Shown in pieces: positions 13,490 through 61,379 of a DNA stretch of 64,000 bases; positions within the stretch are counted from its first letter, which is position 1; the number at the start of each line of letters is the position of its first letter. Source of the stretch: a virus. Lineage: Duplodnaviria; Heunggongvirae; Uroviricota; Caudoviricetes. The notes beneath the pieces were generated by a model, which saw nothing but the letters and a program-made list of their open reading frames with translations, was not told where the DNA came from and searched no databases. Made by a program: the position numbers and the translations under genes. Location: positions 125,430 through 189,429 of IMG/VR virus record IMGVR_UViG_3300029305_004950, one strand, 5' to 3'.

Positions 13490-15019
13490 ATGGCGACTAA
13501 AAAGAATCTAACATATAACGAAGATAGTATTAAAGTCCAAGAATATCCTGATAATGTAAGATCTAATCCTACAGTCTATATCAGTAGTCTTGGTAAAGAA
13601 GGTAATACGCATCTACTAAGAGAAGTAATTGATAACTCTATTGATGAATTCCTAAATGGTTTTGGTAAAACAATTACAATTGAAATTTCCAATAAAAAAG
13701 GTGTATTTAGAGTAATTGATGAAGGTCGTGGTGTTCCTCCTAAATCTATTGAAAGAGCATTTACTACATTACATGCTTCAGGTAAATTCGATAAAGATAG
13801 TTATAGCACATCAGGTGGTCAGCATGGTCTTGGTAGTACATGTGTTAATGCACTTAGTAAGTATTTCCTTGTCATTACACATGAAGGTGGTCATGAATAC
13901 TCTCAAAGATTTGAATATGGTAAGAAAGTAACTGAACTAAAAGATTTAGGAAAGTCTGATAAGGTAGGTACTATTGTAGAGTTTTGTCCTGATGAATCTG
14001 TAATGGATACATTTGAGATTGACATTGAATCAGTCAAAGATGAATGTAAGATGAAGTCTTTTATCAATAAAGGACTTACTATCATTATTAAGGACATGGA
14101 TGAAAAGAAACAGGCTAAGTATTATCATAAAGATGGTATTGAGGAATACGTACAGTTAAATGCTAAGAAAGCTCTATTTAATCCTATTACATTCTCTACA
14201 TCAACTACTGTTAACAAGGCTAATAAAGAATTGAATGTAGAAATCGATTGTTCCTTTACTTATGATAACTCTACTGATCCTATCAATATTAAATCCTTCT
14301 GTAATTCCATTTATACTAGTGATGGCGGTACTCATGAAACTGGTTTTAAAACAGCTCTTACTAGTTTGATTAAAAAGTATATTGCTGATAATAACCTACT
14401 AACTAAAAAAGATGCAAATCTAGACATTACTGGTGATTCAGTTCAGGAAGGTGTAGTAGCAGTAGTATCTATCAAACATCCTCATCCGATGTATGATCAG
14501 CAGTCTAAGAAAAAGCTTAACTCTACAGAAGTTTCTGGTGCAGTAATGAAAGCAGTTAATGCAGAATTTAGTAAGTGGATTGAAACCCATGCTAAAGAAA
14601 TGAAAGTACTTTGTACTAAAGTAATTGAATCTGCAAAGGCTAACAGTGCTGCTAAGAGAGCTAAAGAACTAGCTAATAAGAAATCTGAAAATGGAATTAC
14701 TGCTGTTTCTGATCTATCAAAATTAGCTAACTGTATTTCTAAGAAACCTGAAGAATGTGAACTGTTTGTAGTTGAGGGTAATTCTGCAAGTTCAAGTGCT
14801 AGAAATGGTAGAGATAAGCAAACTCAGGCTGTTTATGCTCTAAGAGGTAAGATTCTCAATACTAACAATCTAGCTGAAACTAAGATTTTTGAAAATAAGG
14901 AACTATCAGATTTGATTTATATCTTAACTGGTAAGAAAACTGCAATTGGTAAGAATTTCAATGTTGAAGACATGAAGTATCATAAACTGGTAGCCTTGAC
15001 TGATGCTGACGATGACGGT
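13490..15019 (+). CDS. gyrB: type II topoisomerase ATPase subunit (GyrB/ParE-like), exon 1
   Basis: GHKL ATPase motifs EVIDNSIDE, GRGVP, GGQHGLGS; Toprim EGNSASSS and DADDDG. The reading frame hits a stop two codons after the conserved DADxDG motif; the downstream ORF supplies the rest (HIASLILGF...PPLY). Confidence 0.88.
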
Positions 15020-16310
15020 AAATGACACATTAAGTCTGCATCAGTGAGAAATTTTCTAACAATACATTAGTATTAATGTTAGGAGGTTTCATTCAAATGA
15101 AAAATGAAAAAGAAACTAAAGAAAGATATGCTTCTGGTATTGAAAATTGTAAAAAACAAGCTCAAAATCTTAAACAAAAAGCATCTGAAAAATTTTTAAG
15201 TAAAGTTTACGAACAAGTTGGTGATGATTATACTTTTCTGGAAACTTATGTAACGAGTAAAACTAAACTCTGGGTAATACATAATGTTTGTGGACATAAG
15301 TATAGAGTAACTCCAAATGAGTTTACTTCTCATAAAAGACGTTGTCCAAACTGTGCAAATAAAAAAAGAGTACTTAATACTGGAATAAAACCTCATACAT
15401 TAGAATCTATTATTGAAAGTGTAAAAGAATTATCTAATGACGAATATGAGGTAGTTAGTAATGAGTATGAAAATAATAAAGAAAAAATTTGGGTTAGACA
15501 TAAAACATGTAGTTATTCATACCTTGTTCGTTATAATGACTTTCAGCAAGGATATAGATGTCCTTTATGTGCTGACATGAATAAAAGTCAGAATAATTCT
15601 AAACCAATACAGGATATTAAAAGTGTTCTAGATTTTAATAAAATTGAGTATGAATCAGAAGTGTCATTTGAAGAATGTGTAGACAAACGTTTTCTTCCAT
15701 TTGATATATTGGTTTATACTGATAAAGTCAATGATGAATACTTTTTAATTGAGTATGATGGACAACAACATTCTGATCCTAATGCACAATTTGGAGGAAC
15801 TAAAGAAGAAAGACTTATTAGATTTGAGCTAACTCAAAAACATGACACTATAAAAAATGCTTTTTGTGAAGAAAACAGTATAAAACTTTATAGAATTTCT
15901 TATAAAGAAGATTTGATGAGCAAACTAAGAAGTATATTGGAAGAAAATAATCTAATTTGACTTGCAGTGAATGCCGTCTAAAAACCTAGTTAACTGCGGG
16001 AAACTATCAATAAACACTATTTACTAAACTAAGATAGTAATATACTTAGTGGCAATGGGTAACTCCAAAGATATAGTAAAAAGAATAGTGTTTGATACAA
16101 TCGACGCAACGAAGTATCCTACATTTAGTAAAAGATAGGATATGAGTTCAACGACTATCGAAACCAACTAACTTAATGTTAGTAATAAGGTAAGTTGAAA
16201 TACTTACACGAAGGGAGTAGAGTAGGGAAATGTAAATTACAAAGTACCGAAAAGCTAGGCTATACTAATTTAGTATAGAAAATATAGTCTAAATTATGCA
16301 AAGTAATTTG
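15020..16310 (+). mobile_element. group I self-splicing intron with homing-endonuclease ORF in the P1 loop
   Basis: Internal guide GCCGTC (15973-15978) complements the exon-1 end GACGGU with a terminal U-G pair. P-like element AACTGCGGGAAAC (~15992), R element GTTCAACGACTA (16146-16157), S element AAAATATAGTCT (~16279). The intron ends in G (16310), giving an in-frame join DADDDG|LHIASLILGF. Confidence 0.75.
15097..15960 (+). CDS. intron-encoded homing endonuclease candidate: two Zn-ribbon-like modules plus a PD-(D/E)xK (Vsr/DUF559-like) nuclease domain
   Basis: ATG at 15097 with TAGGAGG RBS. Duplicated W..H..C..Y.V....F....RCP.CA modules; C-terminal RFLPFDILVY...LIEYDGQQH resembles the restriction-endonuclease-like fold core. 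Confidence 0.55.
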   Translation: MKNEKETKERYASGIENCKKQAQNLKQKASEKFLSKVYEQVGDDYTFLETYVTSKTKLWVIHNVCGHKYRVTPNEFTSHKRRCPNCANKKRVLNTGIKPHTLESIIESVKELSNDEYEVVSNEYENNKEKIWVRHKTCSYSYLVRYNDFQQGYRCPLCADMNKSQNNSKPIQDIKSVLDFNKIEYESEVSFEECVDKRFLPFDILVYTDKVNDEYFLIEYDGQQHSDPNAQFGGTKEERLIRFELTQKHDTIKNAFCEENSIKLYRISYKEDLMSKLRSILEENNLI

Positions 16311-17135
16311 CTTCACATTGCAAGCCTTATCTTAGGATTTGTATATAGACATGCTAAACCCATTTTGGAAAAAGGTTACATGTATATTGCAATGCCTCCT
16401 CTTTATTCTATCATTGAAAGAAATAAGAAACGTTATTTCTTAAATCAAGAGGAATATGATGCATATATTGAGGAAAAGATTTTTGAAAACTATGTATTTA
16501 GTTGTAATGAGATAGGTTTAAATAAGACTAAAGCTAAAACCATTCTTAAGAATTTTGAAACTTACAAAAACAAAGTAAGTGAACTATCTACTAGTACAGG
16601 TATCAATATGTATTTAATTGATGATGTATGTGATTATTTACGTACTAATGAAAATGCAACAAGTAAGGATATTGTGAATTTATTAAAACAGATTGGTGAT
16701 TTTGAATTCTTTAAGAATGATGAAGGAAATTCTGAGATTAATGGTCTTTATGATAATAGCTTTGTAAATGCAGTAATTAAGGATTTAGTAAAGTCTGCTA
16801 AAAAAGCTAAGAAGATTCTAGAAGATCTTAGTATTCCTGAAGAAGTATTCATCAATGATTATCATCTATCAATTAAGAACTATCAAGACATGTATAACAA
16901 GGTTACACCTAAGTCCAGAAGTCGATTCAAAGGCTTGGGAGAAATGGATGCTAATGAACTTTGGGAAACTACTCTTGATCCTTCAGTTAGAAACATTATG
17001 CAAGTTGTACTATCAGATGAAGAAAAGACAGATGATACTATGGATACACTACTAAATTCTAATAGTAAGTATGCAGACAAACGTAAAGTATTCTTAATGA
17101 AAAATCAGCAAAAGATTAAGGAATTAGAAATCTAA
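16311..17135 (+). CDS. gyrB: type II topoisomerase subunit B, exon 2 (C-terminal)
   Basis: HIASLILGFVYRH...YMYIAMPPLY... matches the GyrB region following DADVDG(S)HI; the KGLGEMDANELWETTLDP block matches the GyrB C-terminus. Confidence 0.85.
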   Translation, partial: LHIASLILGFVYRHAKPILEKGYMYIAMPPLYSIIERNKKRYFLNQEEYDAYIEEKIFENYVFSCNEIGLNKTKAKTILKNFETYKNKVSELSTSTGINMYLIDDVCDYLRTNENATSKDIVNLLKQIGDFEFFKNDEGNSEINGLYDNSFVNAVIKDLVKSAKKAKKILEDLSIPEEVFINDYHLSIKNYQDMYNKVTPKSRSRFKGLGEMDANELWETTLDPSVRNIMQVVLSDEEKTDDTMDTLLNSNSKYADKRKVFLMKNQQKIKELEI

Positions 17136-26022: not shown

Positions 26023-26220
26023 ATGAAGTATTCAGAATTGGTCGATCAGGTATTCGTAACTTCGGTGGCAGGTGTTGTACCTTATATCGAAGGACATGCT
26101 GGTGTTGGTAAGTCGCAGATGATTAGAGACGTAGCAAATCTCTATCGTGAAAAAGGATTTGAGGAAGTACCTATCGTTACCTTATTCGGTGCGCTACTAA
26201 AAGAGGGAGAGCTTAACTAA
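26023..26220 (+). CDS. MoxR/AAA_5-type ATPase, exon 1 (Walker A)
   Basis: HAGVGKSQMIRDVANL Walker A. The frame stops after 65 codons; the Walker B half lies 1.2 kb downstream. The exact 3' end of the exon is unresolved. Confidence 0.7.
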   Translation: MKYSELVDQVFVTSVAGVVPYIEGHAGVGKSQMIRDVANLYREKGFEEVPIVTLFGALLKEGELN

Positions 26221-27410
26221 AGGTTACAATTCTTTAATAAAGGGGATGTTTTTATGAGAGTAAAAACAAAACCTAATGTTGATGTTGGAGTTACTTTCAC
26301 AAATAACGATGGTTTAGATTTTATAGTAGATGAGATAGTAGAAATAAAAAAGTATGAAAAAATGTGTAAAATCACATTTTTAGAAAGTGGATATTCAGCT
26401 ATAGTTGGTAGTAGTTCTATAACAAAAGGAAGTGTTAAAGATTACTATCAGATAACTATTCTTGGTGTTGCTTGTTTTGGTGATGCTAAAACAAATCCAA
26501 GGCATACTAAGCAAACATATAGAATTTATAAAAACATGTTACATCGTTGCTATGATGAAAAAAACAAAGACTATAATTCATATGGTGGTATTGGTGTTTC
26601 TGTTTGTTCTAATTGGTTGAACTATAACAATTTTCTAAATGACCTTTATGATATTGAAGGATTTGATTTTGAAAAATTTGAAAATGGTGAAATTAGTATG
26701 GACAAAGATAAGAAACAAAAATACATTCCTAAGAATGAAAGAATTTATAGCAAGGAAACATGTTGTTTCATATCTACTAGTGAAAATTCTACTATAAGAA
26801 ATTTCGAAAATAGTCTAAATCCAGAAAAAAGAAAAATTCTTATAACCTATCCAGATGGTAATACTGAAACAATAGATAGAACAGAATTAAAAATCTATTG
26901 TGAAAAAAAGGGTTTTACAAATCCAAACCATATTAGAAGAGTTTTAAGAAAAGAACGTAATTCTTACAAAAACATTAAATTTGAACTTGTAGACTAATGG
27001 GTTCTTCATTAACAAACCTCATGAACTTAAGGTAAGATCTTAAGGTGTGTTACTTATCGTATTAAGTAATGCTAACGGTATCAGTGGAATAAGGATAGTT
27101 TACTATCACGAAGCAGCTGACTAAGAGACTCTACGGTCCAGAAATGGATAGCAGACAATACCGTGCCAAGCTTCTCAAAAGAGATGAAGGTGTACAGACT
27201 ATCGAAACCAACTAGTTTTAAACTAGTAATAAGGTAAGTTGAAATACTTACACGAAGGGAGTAGAGTAGGATAAACAATCCGAAGGATGAGGATCTAGAT
27301 TGTTTCTAGATAAAAGATAGTCGAAAAATCACATAGAAATATGGTAGTGAAAACTACATGATTTTTGCGGTGGTATTCCCGTTCCTAGACGTGATGAAAA
27401 TAGCAAGAAA
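26221..27410 (+). mobile_element. group I intron interrupting the MoxR ATPase gene (boundaries approximate), with endonuclease ORF near its 5' end
   Basis: Core 27000-27400 holds an R-like GTACAGACTATCG (27192-27204) and an S-like AAAGATAGTCG (27313-27323). A 43-nt block AATAAGGTAAGTTGAAATACTTACACGAAGGGAGTAGAGTAGG (27228-27270) is identical to the gyrB intron at 16184-16226. Confidence 0.7.
26254..26997 (+). CDS. intron-encoded endonuclease-like protein (phage HNH/free-standing homing-endonuclease-associated DNA-binding motif)
   Basis: YRIYKNMLHRCYDEKNKDYNSYGGIGVSVCSNWLNYNNFLNDL matches the Y..W..M..RC......Y..YGGRGI.VC..W..F..F..D module common in phage HNH-family endonucleases. Confidence 0.55.
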   Translation: MRVKTKPNVDVGVTFTNNDGLDFIVDEIVEIKKYEKMCKITFLESGYSAIVGSSSITKGSVKDYYQITILGVACFGDAKTNPRHTKQTYRIYKNMLHRCYDEKNKDYNSYGGIGVSVCSNWLNYNNFLNDLYDIEGFDFEKFENGEISMDKDKKQKYIPKNERIYSKETCCFISTSENSTIRNFENSLNPEKRKILITYPDGNTETIDRTELKIYCEKKGFTNPNHIRRVLRKERNSYKNIKFELVD

Positions 27411-28352
27411 ATGATCAACGATTACACTACACATGTTAAAATGCAGCAGATTTTGGATAATGATACTAGAGGTATCAACACAATCCTCTTTATTGACGAG
27501 CTAAATAGATGTGAAGCAGCAGTGAATCAGGAACTCATGCAGTTGATTCTTGACCGTAGAATCAATGAAACGATTCTTCCTGATTCTTGTATTATTGTTG
27601 CAGCAGGTAACCCTGAGTATGACGATGATAACGACTATCAGGTTCAGGTTATGAACGACGCCATGAAGAATCGGTTTGTTAAGTATACACTTGAAGCTGA
27701 TGTAAAGGACTGGCTTAAGTGGGCATCTAACACAAAGGATGATAACAAAACTGGTACAGAAGCAATTGATTCTGACGTAATTGAGTTTATTGCAGAAATG
27801 CCTAATCTACTTCACGATCCTCATAGTAAAGAAGACATCAAGCCCACTCCTAGAGGTTGGGAACTTCTTTCTAAGGTAATGAGACAGATTAAGAATTACT
27901 ATCCTGAAGATTTTGAAAGTATGTTGTTTGAAGCAGCAAAGGGTGTAGTTGGTCAGACTCCTGCAACCCAGCTAATTGGTTTCCTGAGAGATAAGAAGAA
28001 TCCTATTACTTCTACTAAGGATATTTTCAAGTCTTCTGATAAGGAATTTAACAATAACGTACTTAACAAGATTAAGGGTGATACATCCACTAGACAGTTC
28101 GTTATCATTGATCGTTGCATTCGTTACATTAGCGAAAACATTAAGGAATTCAATGATAAGAAGACTGGTGAAAATAGCTGTAAGAGATTCATTGAAGTAT
28201 GTAAGGTACTTCCCAAGGACATCATGGTTGGCGTTCTAAAGAACATTGGTGTTAATCATAAGAATATTCATGATACTTTTACTAAGTATGATGACTATAT
28301 GGATCTATTCTTTGATACCAATAAGAAGACTATGACTGCGGCAAACATCTAA
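27411..28352 (+). CDS. MoxR/AAA_5-type ATPase, exon 2 (Walker B / sensor region to C-terminus)
   Basis: ILFIDELNRCEAAVNQELMQLILDRR...IIVAAGNPEYDD matches the MoxR vlLaDEiNRa...ATqNP pattern. The frame is open upstream to 27351, so the true 3' splice site lies between about 27351 and 27411. Confidence 0.75.
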   Translation: MINDYTTHVKMQQILDNDTRGINTILFIDELNRCEAAVNQELMQLILDRRINETILPDSCIIVAAGNPEYDDDNDYQVQVMNDAMKNRFVKYTLEADVKDWLKWASNTKDDNKTGTEAIDSDVIEFIAEMPNLLHDPHSKEDIKPTPRGWELLSKVMRQIKNYYPEDFESMLFEAAKGVVGQTPATQLIGFLRDKKNPITSTKDIFKSSDKEFNNNVLNKIKGDTSTRQFVIIDRCIRYISENIKEFNDKKTGENSCKRFIEVCKVLPKDIMVGVLKNIGVNHKNIHDTFTKYDDYMDLFFDTNKKTMTAANI

Positions 28353-38307: not shown

Positions 38308-39675
38308 ATGCCTAGTGTTATTAATATACGTCAAACTATTACTGAATATTTTTCTGGTGATAGTGCTTCTACTAATTTTACTATAACTCACCTTCCTTTA
38401 GCTATACAAAAAATTACTGTAGATGACAATTTATTAGATGAATCTACATATAGTTTATCTGATAAAGTTGTCAAGATTAAATCTGCACCTGCTAGAGGTA
38501 ATAAAAATATAGCAATTACCTATACCTATTATAGTGAACTACCTTTTATTAAAGGTAAGGATGGTAAATCTGTTTATGAAGTAGCTAAAGAAAATGGTTA
38601 TACTGGTAGTGAAATAGATCTTTACGAAGCTTTAGGTGACTTAGATAAATTCCTACCCTTTACTGGTAATGAACCTGGTTTAGTACCTTCTGGTTCTAAT
38701 TCAAATAAAGCTCTTTTCTTATCTGGTGATGGTGTTTGGAGAACTCCAAGTGTTGATTTAAATACAGCTTTAGAAGATTATCCAACTGAAGATGAATTAA
38801 ATAAATTATTAGAAAATTACCTTCAAGATAAGGATTTAAAAAATTCTAATGCATTAGCTGGTATTTTAGAAAATTATGTTAAGTCTAATAATAAAGATAC
38901 TGTATTAGAGACAGTATTAAATGATGGCTATTATACTAAGGATGCAATAGATAAACTATTAGACGGCTATATTAAAAATGGTGAATTAGATGGTAACATT
39001 GGTAGCGATGAAGTAGCTGATTTACTAGCTAACTATGTTAAAAATAGTGAACTAACAGAAACTTTAAAAAAGTATGCACTTCTTACTGAATTAAGTAATT
39101 ATTACAAAAAAACTGAAATAGATGCTACATTAGGTGATTATTACAAAAAAACTGAAATAGATGCTACATTAAAATCTTATACTACTAATACTAACTTTAC
39201 TGATCTTTCAAATAAAGTCACTAATATAGAAAATAATTATACTAAAACATCTGATTTAAGTGATTATGCTAAAACATCTGATTTAACTAATTATGTTAAA
39301 ACTACTGATTTAAATAGTAAATTAACTAGTTATGCTAAAACATCTGATTTAAGTAGTTATGTTAAAACTACTGATTTAAATAGTACATTAAATAGTTATG
39401 CTATTAAATCAACAGCTACTACAGTTACTTTATCAGCTAGTGGTTGGGAAGGAACTGAAGCTCCTTATACCTATAATGCAAGTAATATTTCTGGTATTAC
39501 TGAAAATGGTATTGTTGCATTGGCTGATAGTAATACTTCCGCTCAAAAAGAAGATGCTGCAGATGCTTTAATTAGTGTCAGTGCACAATCTGTAACCAAT
39601 AAAACTATTACATTTGCTGCTAATGGCACTAAACCTACTTCCAATATTGTTTTACAATTGGTATTCTTTGGTTAA
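38308..39675 (+). CDS. tail-fibre-like protein with short tandem peptide repeats
   Basis: ATG at 38308 with GGAGG RBS preferred over the track start at 38290. Repeats YYKKTEIDATL x2 and YAKTSDL(S/T)(N/S)YVKTTDLNS(K/T)L(T/N)SYA x2. Confidence 0.55.
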   Translation: MPSVINIRQTITEYFSGDSASTNFTITHLPLAIQKITVDDNLLDESTYSLSDKVVKIKSAPARGNKNIAITYTYYSELPFIKGKDGKSVYEVAKENGYTGSEIDLYEALGDLDKFLPFTGNEPGLVPSGSNSNKALFLSGDGVWRTPSVDLNTALEDYPTEDELNKLLENYLQDKDLKNSNALAGILENYVKSNNKDTVLETVLNDGYYTKDAIDKLLDGYIKNGELDGNIGSDEVADLLANYVKNSELTETLKKYALLTELSNYYKKTEIDATLGDYYKKTEIDATLKSYTTNTNFTDLSNKVTNIENNYTKTSDLSDYAKTSDLTNYVKTTDLNSKLTSYAKTSDLSSYVKTTDLNSTLNSYAIKSTATTVTLSASGWEGTEAPYTYNASNISGITENGIVALADSNTSAQKEDAADALISVSAQSVTNKTITFAANGTKPTSNIVLQLVFFG

Positions 39676-41110: not shown

Positions 41111-42187
41111 ATGAGTATTATAAATGCTATACCCCAAATTAAAAGTATAGATACTAGTGAATTTGCTAAAATTACTGATTTAAGTGATTGCATGAAAAAA
41201 TCTGAAGTTTTACAATTATCTTCAGAACCAAATTCAACTACAATTGGTTATGCAGGACAAATGGCAATTGTAAATACTGATACAGTATATGTTTGTGCTG
41301 GTGCTATAACTGACGGTACTACAACTCAATATGTATGGAAGAAAAATAGAAGTGGCACTGTTGCTGGAGATAATGGTAGTGATCCTCTAGTTTTTACTAC
41401 AAGTAAAACTATTGATCTTAGTGCTTATGGTTTAGAAACTGGTGATAGTATTACTATTGCTTGTGTTAGTGGTGGTAATGGTGGTCAAGCTGGCGGCGGT
41501 AATGCACTTAGAGATGAAGTAGGTGGTAATGGTGGAGCTGGTGGATGTGGTGGTAAAAGTACTGGTAATAGTCATAGTGGAGGTGGAGGAGGTAGTGGTG
41601 TAGGATATGGTGCAGGTGGCGGAGGTGGTGGAGGTAGACATTATTATAGTAGTACATCTGGCGCCACTAAGTATAAAGCTGGTAATGGTGGAGCTGGTGG
41701 AGCTGGTGGAAAATGTGAGGTAAAAACTGTAACATTAACGTCTACGTCTGTTGCTGTTACTATTGGAGCTGGTGGTACTGGAGGTAGCGGTATTGCTAGT
41801 TCTTCTGGTACTACTAGTGCCGATTATACAATTGGTAATGTTGGTGGTACTGGAGGTACTACATCCTTTGGTAGCTATTTATCAGTTACAGGTGGCGGAG
41901 GTAAAGCTGGTGGTAATGGAAGTAGTGGCGATTATCGTAGTCCTAGTACTTATGATGATTATTCTTATGGTGGTTATGGTGGCGGCGGAGGAGGCGGTTG
42001 GTACTGGACTACTGGAGTAATTGGTTCTCTAAATCAATATGGAGCTGGAAGTAATGGACCTGATACTAGTAGTGCATGGGAAACTTATGGTGGTAGAGGA
42101 GGCGGTGCTGCTGCTGCTAATGGTGGTACTGGAGGTAATTCTGGCACTGATAGTGGTTCTGGTGGCGCAGTCTTTATTTGGTATTAA
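41111..42187 (+). CDS. glycine-rich tail-fibre-like protein (GGxGG/GNGG repeat arrays)
   Basis: 358 aa; long GGNGGAGG / GGGGSG tracts in the C-terminal two-thirds; AAGGGAGG RBS. Confidence 0.55.
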   Translation: MSIINAIPQIKSIDTSEFAKITDLSDCMKKSEVLQLSSEPNSTTIGYAGQMAIVNTDTVYVCAGAITDGTTTQYVWKKNRSGTVAGDNGSDPLVFTTSKTIDLSAYGLETGDSITIACVSGGNGGQAGGGNALRDEVGGNGGAGGCGGKSTGNSHSGGGGGSGVGYGAGGGGGGGRHYYSSTSGATKYKAGNGGAGGAGGKCEVKTVTLTSTSVAVTIGAGGTGGSGIASSSGTTSADYTIGNVGGTGGTTSFGSYLSVTGGGGKAGGNGSSGDYRSPSTYDDYSYGGYGGGGGGGWYWTTGVIGSLNQYGAGSNGPDTSSAWETYGGRGGGAAAANGGTGGNSGTDSGSGGAVFIWY

Positions 42188-48312: not shown

Positions 48313-48752
48313 AAGAATTCATTATATGCTCAACTTATAAATTTTCTTTAAATGCTGGAAATACTCATTTAGTAAAGAGTTAATCAGCAGCTAAAAAATT
48401 AAATGAATTTTTGTTTATATATTTTAATTACGTTCCCAACTCCATGAGATCGTAAAAGTATTCTAAAAACCCTGAGAATACTAATGAGTATAGTTTTAAG
48501 GCTGGTCTATACTCATCCCTCCTTTCCAAAAGTATATAATCAAAAAATCATTTTTGAAGAAGTCTTTACAGGTGACTTCTTTTTTTTTAGTTCAACGACT
48601 ATTTTTGTAGGATTTAAATGAATCTGAAATAAGAAAACTATCTTATATGATAGAAGATATAGTCTAAACTTTATTGAAATATAAAGATTAGTGTAGATTA
48701 ATGGACTACACACTTGAAATAATGATATAATGATACGCAAACTCCAACAGAT
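48313..48752 (+). mobile_element. group I intron core (P/Q/R/S) between two same-frame ORFs, boundaries approximate
   Basis: P AAATGCTGGAAAT 48350-48362, Q AATCAGCAGC 48382-48391, R GTTCAACGACTA 48590-48601, S AAGATATAGTCT 48654-48665, followed by P9-type hairpins. Confidence 0.55.
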
Positions 48753-58410: not shown

Positions 58411-58586
58411 TTTAATTCTCCTTTGTAGTAATAAAATACTAGTAAACTCAATCTATGTTCACTATAGTTAAAATATATGTATATAAAGTGTAAAAATACG
58501 AATTTTTTCATAAAAAACAATAGAAAACTATAAATTACTAATCATTAAACTTGATTAATTTTTATAAAGGAAGGAAAATAAGAATT

Positions 58587-59180
58587 ATGGGTTTATTAAA
58601 AGCACAGTTTAACAAGGCTATTGATAATGGTAAGTTAGGTAAAAAAGTAGAATATATTCCTTTTTATCGTACGGGTATTGATATTTTTGACTATATTAAT
58701 GGTGTAAGAAAAGCAGATGGTACTATGGACTTAGGTATCCAAGGCGGTAGAATCATGATGGATATTGGTCAGTCTGGTACTGGTAAGACTTCTAAGATTA
58801 TTCAGCAGGCATGTTATATCGCCGATCAGTTTGAAGAAGCAGACGTATGGCATTATGATTATGAAAGATCTACTAGTAAGGAACGTGTTATGGCTCTAAC
58901 TGGTTGGTCTTCTGATCATTATGATGAAAAGTATCAAATTTTCCAAGAGAATATTTCTGTAGAAACTCTATTTAGAGCTTGTAAAGAAATTGAAAAGATT
59001 AAGATGGAAAATAAAGAAGCTATTCAGATTGATACTGGTAGAAAAGATGGCAGTGGTAAACCTGTTTACATCTTACCTCCTACAATTATGATTGTAGACT
59101 CCGTCGCTATGTTAGCTCCTGAAGATGTCGAGGATGATGATGAACTAAAGGGATCAATGGGTAAACTTGCAATTGCATAA
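58587..59180 (+). CDS. uvsX: UvsX/RecA-like recombinase, exon 1 (3' end approximate)
   Basis: ATG at 58587 with AAGGAAGGA RBS. Walker A GQSGTGKTS. IMIVDSVAMLAPE matches RecA/UvsX VIDSLGNL / VVDSVAAL. The frame stops at 59180 inside the conserved core, about 25 nt before an intron P element. Confidence 0.8.
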   Translation: MGLLKAQFNKAIDNGKLGKKVEYIPFYRTGIDIFDYINGVRKADGTMDLGIQGGRIMMDIGQSGTGKTSKIIQQACYIADQFEEADVWHYDYERSTSKERVMALTGWSSDHYDEKYQIFQENISVETLFRACKEIEKIKMENKEAIQIDTGRKDGSGKPVYILPPTIMIVDSVAMLAPEDVEDDDELKGSMGKLAIA

Positions 59181-60196
59181 TGTGCTCATTTAAAACTCAC
59201 TTAATTGCTGGAAAAACTAATTTAGAAAATCAGCAGCTTATAAACAGTTGAAAAAATTATTGCACTAATTTTCGCACCCAAAATCTAACATATAATTAAA
59301 TTCTATATGTTAGGAGTTGTAAAAATGAAAATAGATTTTCAAAGTTTTATGGTTGGATGTTGTTTAGGTGATTCTAGTTTTGAATTTAGAGCTAGAACAG
59401 ATACATTTGATAGAATTTCATTTGGACATAAGATAGAGAATAAAGATTATGTTGATTTAAAGAAAAATATTTTATCTGAAAATAACATAGAGTTTTCAGA
59501 ATTAAAAGGATTAAGTATGACTAATATCTGTCGTTTTAGAATTTCTTATTCAAAATATAGTGAGTTAATTGAAACTTATTATGAATTAACTAGAAATAAT
59601 GATAGAAGTAGAAAACTTCCATCAATTGAGTATATTACTCCAACTACTCTTTTCTTTTGGTTTTTAGATGATGGTTATACTACAGCTAGAAATTGTAAAA
59701 ATAAGAGTTCTAAAATTTCTGGTTATGTTAGAACTGAAATAGGAATTGCTTTAAAGAGCTATGCTGACGAGGATATTATGAACTTAACACCTCAAATCAA
59801 TGAAAAATTTGGTTTAAATTTTACTTATAAGTATGATTACTATAATGGTACTAAAAAGATTAAAGATATTATCCTTTCAAAAAAGAAAGACCAATATAAG
59901 TTTTTGGATCTTATGTATCAATTTAAAGAAATTTTACCTGTAAGTATGGAATATAAATTCTGTCTTTGTGAAATACCTAAACGAAATGGAATTAGTGTAG
60001 ATACAAGATACAATATGTGTGATGTACATGAAACTGGATTTTGTACATGTAGAGAAAAAGATTTCTCTAATTGTTTATAAGTTCAACGACTATGTCATTG
60101 CAAGTGCAATGTGAATATTGAGTACTGGAAACAGTAAAGATATAGTCTAATCTAAGTAGTAATACTTAGAAGAAGAACTAACAATTCTTCAAATAA
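59181..60196 (+). mobile_element. group I intron 1 in the recombinase gene, carrying a LAGLIDADG homing endonuclease gene in a peripheral loop (boundaries approximate)
   Basis: P AATTGCTGGAAAA 59203-59215, Q AATCAGCAGC 59227-59236, then the ORF, then R GTTCAACGACTA 60081-60092 directly after the ORF stop, and S AAGATATAGTCT 60137-60148. Confidence 0.75.
59325..60080 (+). CDS. LAGLIDADG-family homing endonuclease (double-motif)
   Basis: ATG at 59325 with TAGGAG RBS. Motif 1 FMVGCCLGDSSF, motif 2 LFFWFLDDGYTT. Confidence 0.65.
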   Translation: MKIDFQSFMVGCCLGDSSFEFRARTDTFDRISFGHKIENKDYVDLKKNILSENNIEFSELKGLSMTNICRFRISYSKYSELIETYYELTRNNDRSRKLPSIEYITPTTLFFWFLDDGYTTARNCKNKSSKISGYVRTEIGIALKSYADEDIMNLTPQINEKFGLNFTYKYDYYNGTKKIKDIILSKKKDQYKFLDLMYQFKEILPVSMEYKFCLCEIPKRNGISVDTRYNMCDVHETGFCTCREKDFSNCL

Positions 60197-60328
60197 AAGC
60201 TGGCAACAGCAATTGCAAAGGCAAATACTAACGTTTTTAAGCGTATTATGTCTCCTATGCAGAATGCTAACATTATTCTAATGCTAGTTAATCATATTAC
60301 ACAGAAAATTGATAGATTTTTGTCAATG
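60197..60328 (+). CDS. uvsX: UvsX/RecA-like recombinase, internal micro-exon
   Basis: Open frame KLATAIAKANTNVFKRIMSPMQNANIILMLVNHITQKIDRFLSM. It aligns with RecA [26 protein letters not shown] and T4 UvsX CIAINHTYETQEMFSKTVM. Bounded upstream by intron-1 S and downstream by the intron-2 P element. Confidence 0.55.
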
Positions 60329-60758
60329 TAAAATCTTAAGAATTGCTGGAAAAATCGATAAGATAAATCAGCATCCCTTATATTAAGGGTTCAACGACTA
60401 TATACTATAGAAATCTATAGTTAGTATAAGACTTAGAAGATATAGTCTGAACTTCTATGAAAATAGAAGACTTAAGTACGATTAATGAACGTACTAATAA
60501 TACAATTGATTAATCCGATGGCTCGAACCAAGGCTCAGATAAACTATCTTAAGCAGGATGAGTCAATTCCAGGTAAACTATTTACTGCCTGATGTATATT
60601 CTTAAATGCTGGAAAATTTATAAAACAATCAGCATCTAGTATTTTATACTAGTTCAACGACTAATTTTACTTTTCAAATGAAAAGGAAATGGAATCTTTG
60701 AAGATATAGTCTCAACTTCTATGGAAACATAGAGAAATTTGTAGCTTAATAAACTACA
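60329..60758 (+). mobile_element. two tandem minimal group I intron cores (introns 2 and 3) in the recombinase gene
   Basis: Core A: P 60341-60353, Q 60365-60374, R 60389-60400, S 60437-60448. Core B: P 60604-60616, Q 60627-60636, R 60652-60663, S 60701-60712. Each has P6/P8/P9-type hairpins. An in-frame stop at 60750 forces the 3' splice site to between 60753 and about 60775. Confidence 0.6.
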
Positions 60759-61379
60759 ATGAAGAAATGTAAAAAATTGGGTAAAGCAGTTTCTTACCTA
60801 ACTAATACACTAACTAAACTAGAAACAGGCTCTAAGCTAGAAACTGATAAGGAATTTGGTATTAAGGGTTTCTATCTATCTGGTATTCTAGTTAAGTCTC
60901 GTTCTACTGAAGCTGGTGTATCCTTTAAGATGGTATTTGAACAGAAGAAGGGTGTTAATAACCTACTAACAAACTTTGCTAATCTTAAGGATCTAGGTCG
61001 TATCACTGGTGCAGGTCGTAGCTTTAAACTAGATACTTGTCCTGATGTTAAGTTCTCTATTAAGGAATTCCAGAATAAGTACTATGAATCTGCAGAACTT
61101 AGAAAAGCTTTTGATGCAGCAGTTCATGAAGAATATTCTAAGTTCCTACCTGAAGCTGGTGTTGCACCTAGTCAGTCTATTGATATGAATAAGCTAGATG
61201 AACTAATTGAAGATGATGTTAAGTCTGCAGGTAAGAAATCTAGTAAGACAACTAAAACTACTAAAGCAACTACTTATGAACTAGTAGATGAAGAAAATGG
61301 TGTTTACCAAGGTACAGATGGTAAGTACTATATCATCGAGAATGGTGAATATGTAGAAGTAGAATATGAAGAAGAATAA
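60759..61379 (+). CDS. uvsX: UvsX/RecA-like recombinase, 3' exon
   Basis: GKAVSYLTNTL...GFYLSGILVKSRSTEAGVSFKMVF aligns with T4 UvsX GPMYSADTVF...GYQFVLNVEKSRTVKEKSKFFIDV and RecA GNALKFYASVRLDIRR; acidic C-terminal tail as in UvsX. Confidence 0.75.
   Translation: MKKCKKLGKAVSYLTNTLTKLETGSKLETDKEFGIKGFYLSGILVKSRSTEAGVSFKMVFEQKKGVNNLLTNFANLKDLGRITGAGRSFKLDTCPDVKFSIKEFQNKYYESAELRKAFDAAVHEEYSKFLPEAGVAPSQSIDMNKLDELIEDDVKSAGKKSSKTTKTTKATTYELVDEENGVYQGTDGKYYIIENGEYVEVEYEEE

Follow-up and report, generated by a model that had tools for sequence, protein, structure and literature searches.

The 43-nt repeat shared exactly by two introns in the 64,000-nt stretch of jumbo-phage DNA analysed here (the window) appears to reflect a common, very slowly evolving module and not a recently duplicated intron. 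Both elements are predicted to be self-splicing group I introns of the IA2-like kind, one interrupting gyrB and the other a gene for a MoxR-like AAA ATPase, and the repeat would be part of the P7.1/P7.2 peripheral domain of each. That the repeat is a slowly evolving P7.1/P7.2 module, shared most likely through recombination or gene conversion between introns, is the reading in which we place good, though not full, confidence.

The gyrB and MoxR-like ATPase genes and their group I introns

The gyrB locus is organised as follows.

13490..15019, + strand: exon 1 of the gyrB-like topoisomerase gene, ending ...TDADDDG (Pfam DNA_gyraseB, HATPase_c and Toprim)
15020..16310, + strand: gyrB group I intron with a 'type A' core, 1291 nt; 5' splice site after U15019, terminal G at G16310
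15097..15960, + strand: homing-endonuclease-like ORF of the gyrB intron, in the P1 loop (phrog_559, 1.5e-53; Pfam DUF4379 treble-clef zinc finger)
15973..15978, + strand: guide sequence GCCGUC of the gyrB intron, pairing with exon GACGGU at 15014-15019 (P1), as read from the sequence
16153..16226, + strand: gyrB copy of the shared module, from the P7 5' strand (16153-16158) through the first GG of P7.2
16184..16226, + strand: gyrB copy of the 43-nt exact repeat
16227..16310, + strand: 3' part of the gyrB intron, with P7.2, P3', P8, P7', P9 and the terminal G; helices read from the sequence
16311..17135, + strand: exon 2 of gyrB, LHIASLILGF... (Pfam DNA_gyraseB_C), aligning to AR9 gyrB

The MoxR-like locus comprises the following features.

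26023..26213, + strand: exon 1 of the MoxR-like AAA ATPase gene, ending ...LKEGEL
26214..27367, + strand: group I intron of the MoxR-like gene, 1154 nt; 5' splice site after U26213, terminal G at G27367
26254..26997, + strand: endonuclease-like ORF of the MoxR intron, in the P1 loop (phrog_2081, 8e-47)
26999..27007, + strand: guide sequence GGGUUCUUC of the MoxR intron, pairing with GGAGAGCUU at 26206-26214, as read from the sequence
27197..27270, + strand: MoxR copy of the shared module (P7 5' strand 27197-27202, P7.1a 27211-27227, P7.1b 27234-27251)
27228..27270, + strand: MoxR copy of the 43-nt exact repeat
27271..27367, + strand: 3' part of the MoxR intron, with P7.2 (27269-27281), P3', P8, P7', P9 and the terminal G, read from the sequence
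27368..28352, + strand: exon 2 of the MoxR-like ATPase gene

Group I introns in these two genes had been proposed from the letters alone, and their junctions are confirmed by intron-less homologues. Exon 1 of gyrB is 37-39% identical to the gyrB of AR9, Internexus and BpSp, the alignment stopping at residue 510. The spliced gene reads DADDDG/LHIASL in frame and aligns without a gap to the intact gyrB of Bacillus phage AR9 (DADDDGYHITML), and the same junction is matched by an intron-less allele in a relative contig (L186). Likewise, splicing of the MoxR-like gene joins LKEGEL to GGIPVP (26213 to 27368) in frame and without a gap against LKEGELTGMPI of AR9 g028, to which the spliced protein is 35% identical in one piece. 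The full match to AAA_5, over residues 23-167, is restored by splicing, and an intron-less allele (L185) agrees with this junction as well. A MoxR 5' splice site after U26214 was rejected, as it leaves either exon 2 out of frame or a terminal C. In the closest relative found, the 299-kb IMG/VR contig IMGVR_UViG_3300031555_004294, whose exons show 79-82% DNA identity, both genes are intron-less and joined exactly at the predicted splice sites. Upstream of the intron-less MoxR-like gene on that contig (L185, 2100-2620), about 12 repeats of about 45 nt were seen, of the form ...AATGAATCA...ATAGTATCA..., which have the look of iterons or of an array of binding sites. When the gyrB region was compared with phage genomes by megablast, nothing matched; the window phage has no close sequenced relative in the collection searched.

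Both introns were assigned a P1 that places a U-G wobble at the 5' splice site (U15019-G15973 in gyrB and U26213-G27000 in MoxR), helices P3, P4, P5, P6, P7, P8 and P9, and a terminal G. The order P7, module, P7.2, P3', P8, P7' is the same in both introns and in their relatives, as expected of subgroup IA. In the gyrB intron, P3' (16255-16259) pairs with 15985-15989, P8 spans 16260-16278, P7' 16284-16289 and P9 16291-16309; in the MoxR intron, P3' (27287-27292) pairs with 27017-27022, and P8, P7' and P9 lie at 27293-27311, 27317-27322 and 27324-27366. By inspection, P3 is complementary in at least 8 sequence versions across the relatives, and P7 covaries across the family in 5 complementary variants. 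An arrangement with P7.1/P7.2 placed after P3' was dropped once the P3 pairings CCUAG/CUAGG and CCUCAU/AUGAGG had been found.

Pairing was also counted formally in nine type A introns, where 86% of the cells were paired versus 34-48% with the partners slid, and 21 pairs had changes on both sides. This covariation supports P4, distal P5, P5a, P5b, P6, P7 and P7.1b; the P7.2-P3'-P8 helices were excluded from the count, as the MAFFT alignment of that region was too poor to score. The structure of the type C 5' half of the MoxR intron was assigned by eye. Its P3 covaries with that of the type C relatives L052, L020 and L031, and the chosen pairing is complementary in all 4 type C sequences checked. 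An alternative type C P3 (UGGC/GCCA beside J3/4) was rejected because it fails in the MoxR intron. Two covarying hairpins, to which we give no standard name, lie between P3 and the UAA-P4 junction (27026-27069) in the MoxR intron and in other type C cores, which is an unusual insertion place for group I introns.

Membership in the group I family rests on our own helix assignments and covariation. Rfam gave no group I match over the whole window at the gathering score, no match to RF00028 (Intron_gpI) in either intron region at E<=10, and no group I match in ORF-less relatives, including the split Internexus gyrB, at E<=1. These misses are read as limited sensitivity of the models.

In both introns the ORF occupies the P1 loop, downstream of the 5' splice site and ahead of the guide sequence (15020-15972 and 26214-26998), and P2 is absent. 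Most type C relatives have their ORF after P4'/P6 instead, and in this feature as well the MoxR intron is more like a type A intron. The proposal that the two ORFs belong to different families was borne out, as they fall in phrog_559 and phrog_2081 and BLASTP between them gave E=0.15. Both of these are labelled 'HNH endonuclease' in PHROGs, while Pfam reports a zinc finger for the gyrB ORF only; the MoxR-intron ORF had no match in Pfam, NCBIfam or PDB sequences. PDB sequence searches with the two ORFs were uninformative, and NCBIfam returned nothing useful. The open frame of the gyrB-intron ORF starts at 15076, an ATG with AGGAGG ahead of it stands at 15097, and the C-terminal 'FLIEYDGQQH' looks Vsr/PD-(D/E)XK-like by eye. 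This ORF is 31% identical to the phrog_559 ORF of another intron (L001), which sits in a different loop (P6 position), which fits the established view that endonuclease genes move independently of the ribozyme (PMC3984707). About 22 nt just ahead of the guide are also similar between the two introns (ATTTGACTTGCAGTGAATG at 15950-15972 and ATTTGAACTTGTAGACTAATG at 26976-26999). This similarity overlaps the ends of both unrelated ORFs; it may be a coincidence of AT-rich sequence or reflect a small element common to the two introns.

The shared module and its family

The similarity that drew attention to these introns is exact over 43 nt. The 43-mer AATAAGGTAAGTTGAAATACTTACACGAAGGGAGTAGAGTAGG occurs on the + strand at 16184-16226 and 27228-27270, and the whole window contains no third copy, even at 3 mismatches; by chance no copies are expected (100 shuffles). 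The identical run is really 47 nt long (16180-16226 and 27224-27270), as TAGT precedes the 43-mer in both places, and upstream of it the 18-nt GACTATCGAAACCAACTA is identical as well (16153-16170 and 27197-27214). A repeat finder delimited a 74-nt block around the 43-mer in which 68 of 74 positions are identical (92%). The hairpin ahead of the 43-mer, P7.1a, had been described as different in sequence and equal in shape, and it is: ACTAAC-TTAAT-GTTAGT in the gyrB intron (16167-16183) and ACTAGTT-TTA-AACTAGT in the MoxR intron (27211-27227). Two double compensatory changes (A-T to G-C and C-G to T-A) and one extra pair are read between them.

The 43-mer is located between the P7 5' strand (GACUAU) and P3', where subgroup IA carries P7.1/P7.2. 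From 5' to 3', the module consists of P7, the junction CGAAA, a 2-bp closing helix (C16164-G16214 and C16165-G16213 in gyrB), the variable hairpin P7.1a, AAUAAG, the hairpin P7.1b (16190-16207 in gyrB), ACGAAG, GAGUAGAGUA and P7.2, of which it includes the first GG. A second AAUAAG-hairpin-ACGAAG unit (GGAATAAGGATAGTTTACTATCACGAAGC) is present in the P5 extension of the MoxR intron at 27090-27113 and in other type C cores, e.g. L052. Because it occurs in the module and in the P5 extension, this unit is a reusable building block; it may resemble the UAA/GAN internal-loop motif.

The element ACGAAGnGAGTAGAGTAGG was found at 61 viral-contig loci and, by distant BLAST, in the Staphylococcus jumbo phage LY01. 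All loci with ACGAAGnGAGTAGAGTAGG have one layout, namely GACTATCGAAA-N-C, one or more variable hairpins, AATAAG, a hairpin and ACGAAG-N'-GAGTAGAGTAGG. Of 47 distinct modules, 46 have a Watson-Crick or G-U pair at the closing position N-N', and P7.1b has 34 distinct versions with complementary ends. Blocks AATAAG and ACGAAGnGAGTAGAGTAGG make up 25 of the 43 nt and recur in more than 60 phage introns, a set in which the constancy of ACGAAGnGAGTAGAGTAGG is built in, as it was the search query; the sample of the family is biased by the search motifs in the same way. The remaining 18 of the 43 nt are one version of the hairpin that varies across the family. A degenerate pattern of the module had no match among bacteria and archaea, searched with one genome per species, and the intron family looks phage-borne. 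Type C cores are very common in viral contigs, where their P7.1 inserts are diverse and mostly quite different from the shared module. By analogy with the IA2 ribozymes of Twort and T4 td, the unpaired blocks of the module probably make packing contacts with the catalytic core near the guanosine-binding P7.

The sequence-only reading had itself named identity confined to a universal P7-P9 motif as the alternative to its view of the repeat. This alternative is largely right, in that the module is found family-wide; only its location is different, the block lying between P7 and P3' (P7.1/P7.2) and not in P7-P9.

Origin of the sharing between the two introns

In segment-wise global alignment against shuffles, the module scored z=16.3, while the 5' core reached z=2.2 and the part after the module z=0.3. 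The P3, P7.2, P8 and P9 helices, the guide sequences, the 5' halves and the endonuclease genes are all unrelated between the two introns. Over nearly its whole length the gyrB RNA can be aligned, at about 72%, to type A introns of other contigs (L058, L010, L181, L179 and L033), and its 5' core matches those of L058, L010, L035 and L181 and not that of the MoxR intron. In the MoxR RNA, nt 17-225 have their best matches in type C introns (L120, L097, L149 and L128), whereas nt 168-331 best match the 3' halves of L181, L010 and L058; its 5' core matches L052, L026, L021, L128 and L120 and not the gyrB core. Because its 5' part matches type C and its 3' part matches L181, L010 and L058, the MoxR intron looks chimeric, with a 'type C' 5' core and a 3' half of the sort usually found with type A or B cores.

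The two introns had been taken for recent relatives that spread within this genome. This could not be upheld, as pairwise alignment confines their similarity to the module, they are no more alike outside the 74-nt block than shuffled sequence, and the gyrB intron is type A end to end while the MoxR 5' half is type C. The accompanying picture of one RNA core combined with different endonuclease genes also has to be replaced, for the cores themselves differ and what they have in common is one peripheral module.

The exact 43-mer was found in 5 unrelated contigs, of which four are metagenomic and one is a further viral contig. All of them are distinct from this phage, and the cores that accompany the 43-mer are of types A, B and C. 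In three of the contigs, which carry type A cores, the 43-mer is 100% identical while the 5' cores are only 63-69% identical to that of the gyrB intron. As the exact 43-mer persists beside such cores, its identity does not date the event. Other type A introns, with 5' cores 66-73% identical to that of the gyrB intron, differ at 3-4 positions of the 43-mer. The 43-nt segment evolves at a rate several times lower than the remainder of the intron, and for this reason the zero differences between the window copies are uninformative on time.

It is extremely improbable, in our judgement, that one intron was recently copied to the second site by ectopic homing or reverse splicing and had its endonuclease gene swapped afterwards. 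Such a copy would agree with the modules being each other's best match (92% over 74 nt), with the ORF in the P1 loop and the missing P2 of both introns, and with the absence of both from the closest relative phage. However, the similarity covers only 74 of about 350 nt of RNA core, the 5' core and the 3' part being at chance level. Moreover, the 5' cores are of different types with nearest relatives in other phages, and unrelated phages with cores 31-37% diverged still carry the identical 43-mer.

Several observations bear on how the module came to be shared. Identical P7.1b hairpins were found in 4 of 7 pairs of introns on the same contig, versus 12 of 854 pairs (1.4%) on different contigs. 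In two other phage lineages, the co-resident modules are identical at 82/82 and 86/86 positions beside near-random 5' regions. For P7.1a, the MoxR intron is the closest match of the gyrB intron (12/18 by manual count, versus 11-50% for other introns). One P7.1b version is carried by three mutually unalignable core types, and the P7.1a types also reassort. Because the module is found on three core types and co-resident introns share it far above chance, exchange between introns is the most likely source. The route would be homologous recombination or patch gene conversion, with the conserved blocks as anchor points.

These observations also speak to pure conservation, an ancestral 43-mer held by selection on folding while the rest of the intron drifted without any exchange, which we regard as unlikely. 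The family-wide blocks covering 25 of the 43 nt are in keeping with it, and so are the 0-4 changes in the 43-mer against 27-37% difference between cores. Yet the P7.1b stem is free to vary, as its 34 complementary versions demonstrate, and the same version still stands on types A, B and C, while most type C introns carry quite different P7.1 inserts. Nor does conservation agree with the excess of sharing among co-resident introns or with their fully identical modules, in which even the hypervariable P7.1a is included. On another explanation, a trans-acting factor specific to the phage or the host, for example a splicing cofactor or regulator, would dock on the module, so that the introns of one genome are selected for the same version. 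Module versions common to the introns of one genome, and the AAUAAG-hairpin-ACGAAG unit in the P5 extension of type C cores, would fit this; but no candidate factor was identified, convergent selection is not expected to yield exact identity of arbitrary stems, and gene conversion is simpler for the same data. We consider a docking site very unlikely.

Exchange between introns, the preferred reading, can be placed only loosely. In another source, a type C core already carries the same 43-mer (L180), and a ready-made chimera could therefore have arrived by homing. The 6 differences in P7.1a between the window introns argue against a very recent full-length conversion. The exchange may have taken place inside this phage lineage.

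A broader scheme can be offered tentatively, with odds that we put somewhat below even. The introns of this family would evolve by swapping sub-modules (5' core type, P7.1a, P7.1b and P7.2-P8) in varying combinations, with GACUAUCGAAA, AAUAAG and ACGAAGnGAGUAGAGUAGG serving as homology arms, and co-resident introns would repeatedly homogenise P7.1 by patch gene conversion. If this is true, the MoxR intron would be a type C core carrying the module of a gyrB-type intron.

Relation to known introns and wider meaning

The window introns are similar to the phage IA2 introns (T4 td, nrdB and sunY; Twort orf142) in the P1 U-G wobble, the terminal G, the P3-P8 and P4-P6 domains, P7 GACUAU/AUAGUC and the extra P7.1/P7.2 between P7 and P3'. 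They also have in common with them an optional endonuclease ORF in a loop and insertion in conserved codons of DNA-metabolism genes. A GGGAGUAG-like strand is present in them, as it is in T4 td. Unlike those introns, the P7.1 of the window introns is a junction of two hairpins flanked by AAUAAG and ACGAAG, the ORFs are in the P1 loop, P2 is absent and RF00028 does not detect them. General features of phage group I introns are given in PMC3984707.

The gyrB intron of Bacillus phage vB_BspM_Internexus (MW749003, 174561-174940, about 380 nt) is annotated only as a split gyrB. Like the window gyrB intron, it directly follows the GGT (Gly) codon of the Toprim DxDxDG motif, its guide GCUGUC (versus GCCGUC) is at the equivalent place and pairs with the same exon, and its type A 5' core is 57-68% identical. 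In contrast to the window intron, it is ORF-less, and its P7.1 is a single long hairpin without the AAUAAG...ACGAAG unit; for this reason its 43-mer region is only 47% identical.

Recombination of T4 introns at short conserved core sequences has reportedly produced chimeric introns (Hall et al. 1989; Bryk and Belfort 1990, Nature). In those laboratory crossovers the exons were rearranged, whereas here one module is shared naturally in a patch-like manner with the exons untouched. In a 2025 survey of Bastillevirinae phage introns, the 5' and 3' core parts of some introns align to different subgroups, and IA2 was found to be heterogeneous (PMC11878797). The chimeric appearance of the MoxR intron fits this 5'/3' subgroup mismatch; unlike the present work, the survey concerns different phages and introns detectable with Rfam/GISSD, and has no module-level analysis. 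As in the model of endonuclease-gene invasion or collaborative homing (PMC3984707, PMC2988022), intron RNA and endonuclease gene have separate histories here. The window is another example of this process and brings nothing new to it.

Four more group I-like introns, smaller and Twort-like, were noticed in the window at 48313-48735, 59181-60160, about 60310-60500 and about 60590-60758, with the motif order AAATGCTGGAAA...ATCAGCA...GTTCAACGACTA...GATATAGTCT. A single gene (58551-61379) seems to be split by three of them, the first containing a LAGLIDADG ORF at 59307-60080 (Pfam 8.9e-14). This gene recalls orf142 of phage Twort, which is a three-intron gene. In Staphylococcus phage LY01 (OR836606, about 176470-177540; L002 1960-3030), four intron-like cores, one large with the module and three small, occupy unannotated gaps between 'hypothetical protein' CDSs; this is probably a split gene that has gone unrecognised in the public record. 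Elsewhere in the window, 39064-39414 and 41443-42007 contain in-frame periodic repeats, one with a 27-nt period (TCTGATTTAAnTAATTATGnTAAAAC...) and the other a GGT/GGA tract rich in glycine. Repeats of both kinds are typical of phage proteins of the tail-fibre or collagen-like type.

Taken for what they are, the two elements are new introns of a known type, whose shared peripheral module is apparently both conserved and exchangeable. However striking, an exact repeat between introns does not point to recent spread when the repeated piece is a slowly evolving module in wide circulation. An abundant intron family that Rfam does not detect accounts for split genes annotated without an intron, as in Internexus gyrB and the LY01 gaps, and its conserved blocks provide simple search patterns for such introns in metagenomes. 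Combinatorial exchange, if true, would give the 'domain shuffling' of T4 introns in the laboratory its counterpart in nature. The sharing of modules by co-resident introns hints at concerted evolution of ribozyme parts, which would bear on the origin of intron variants.
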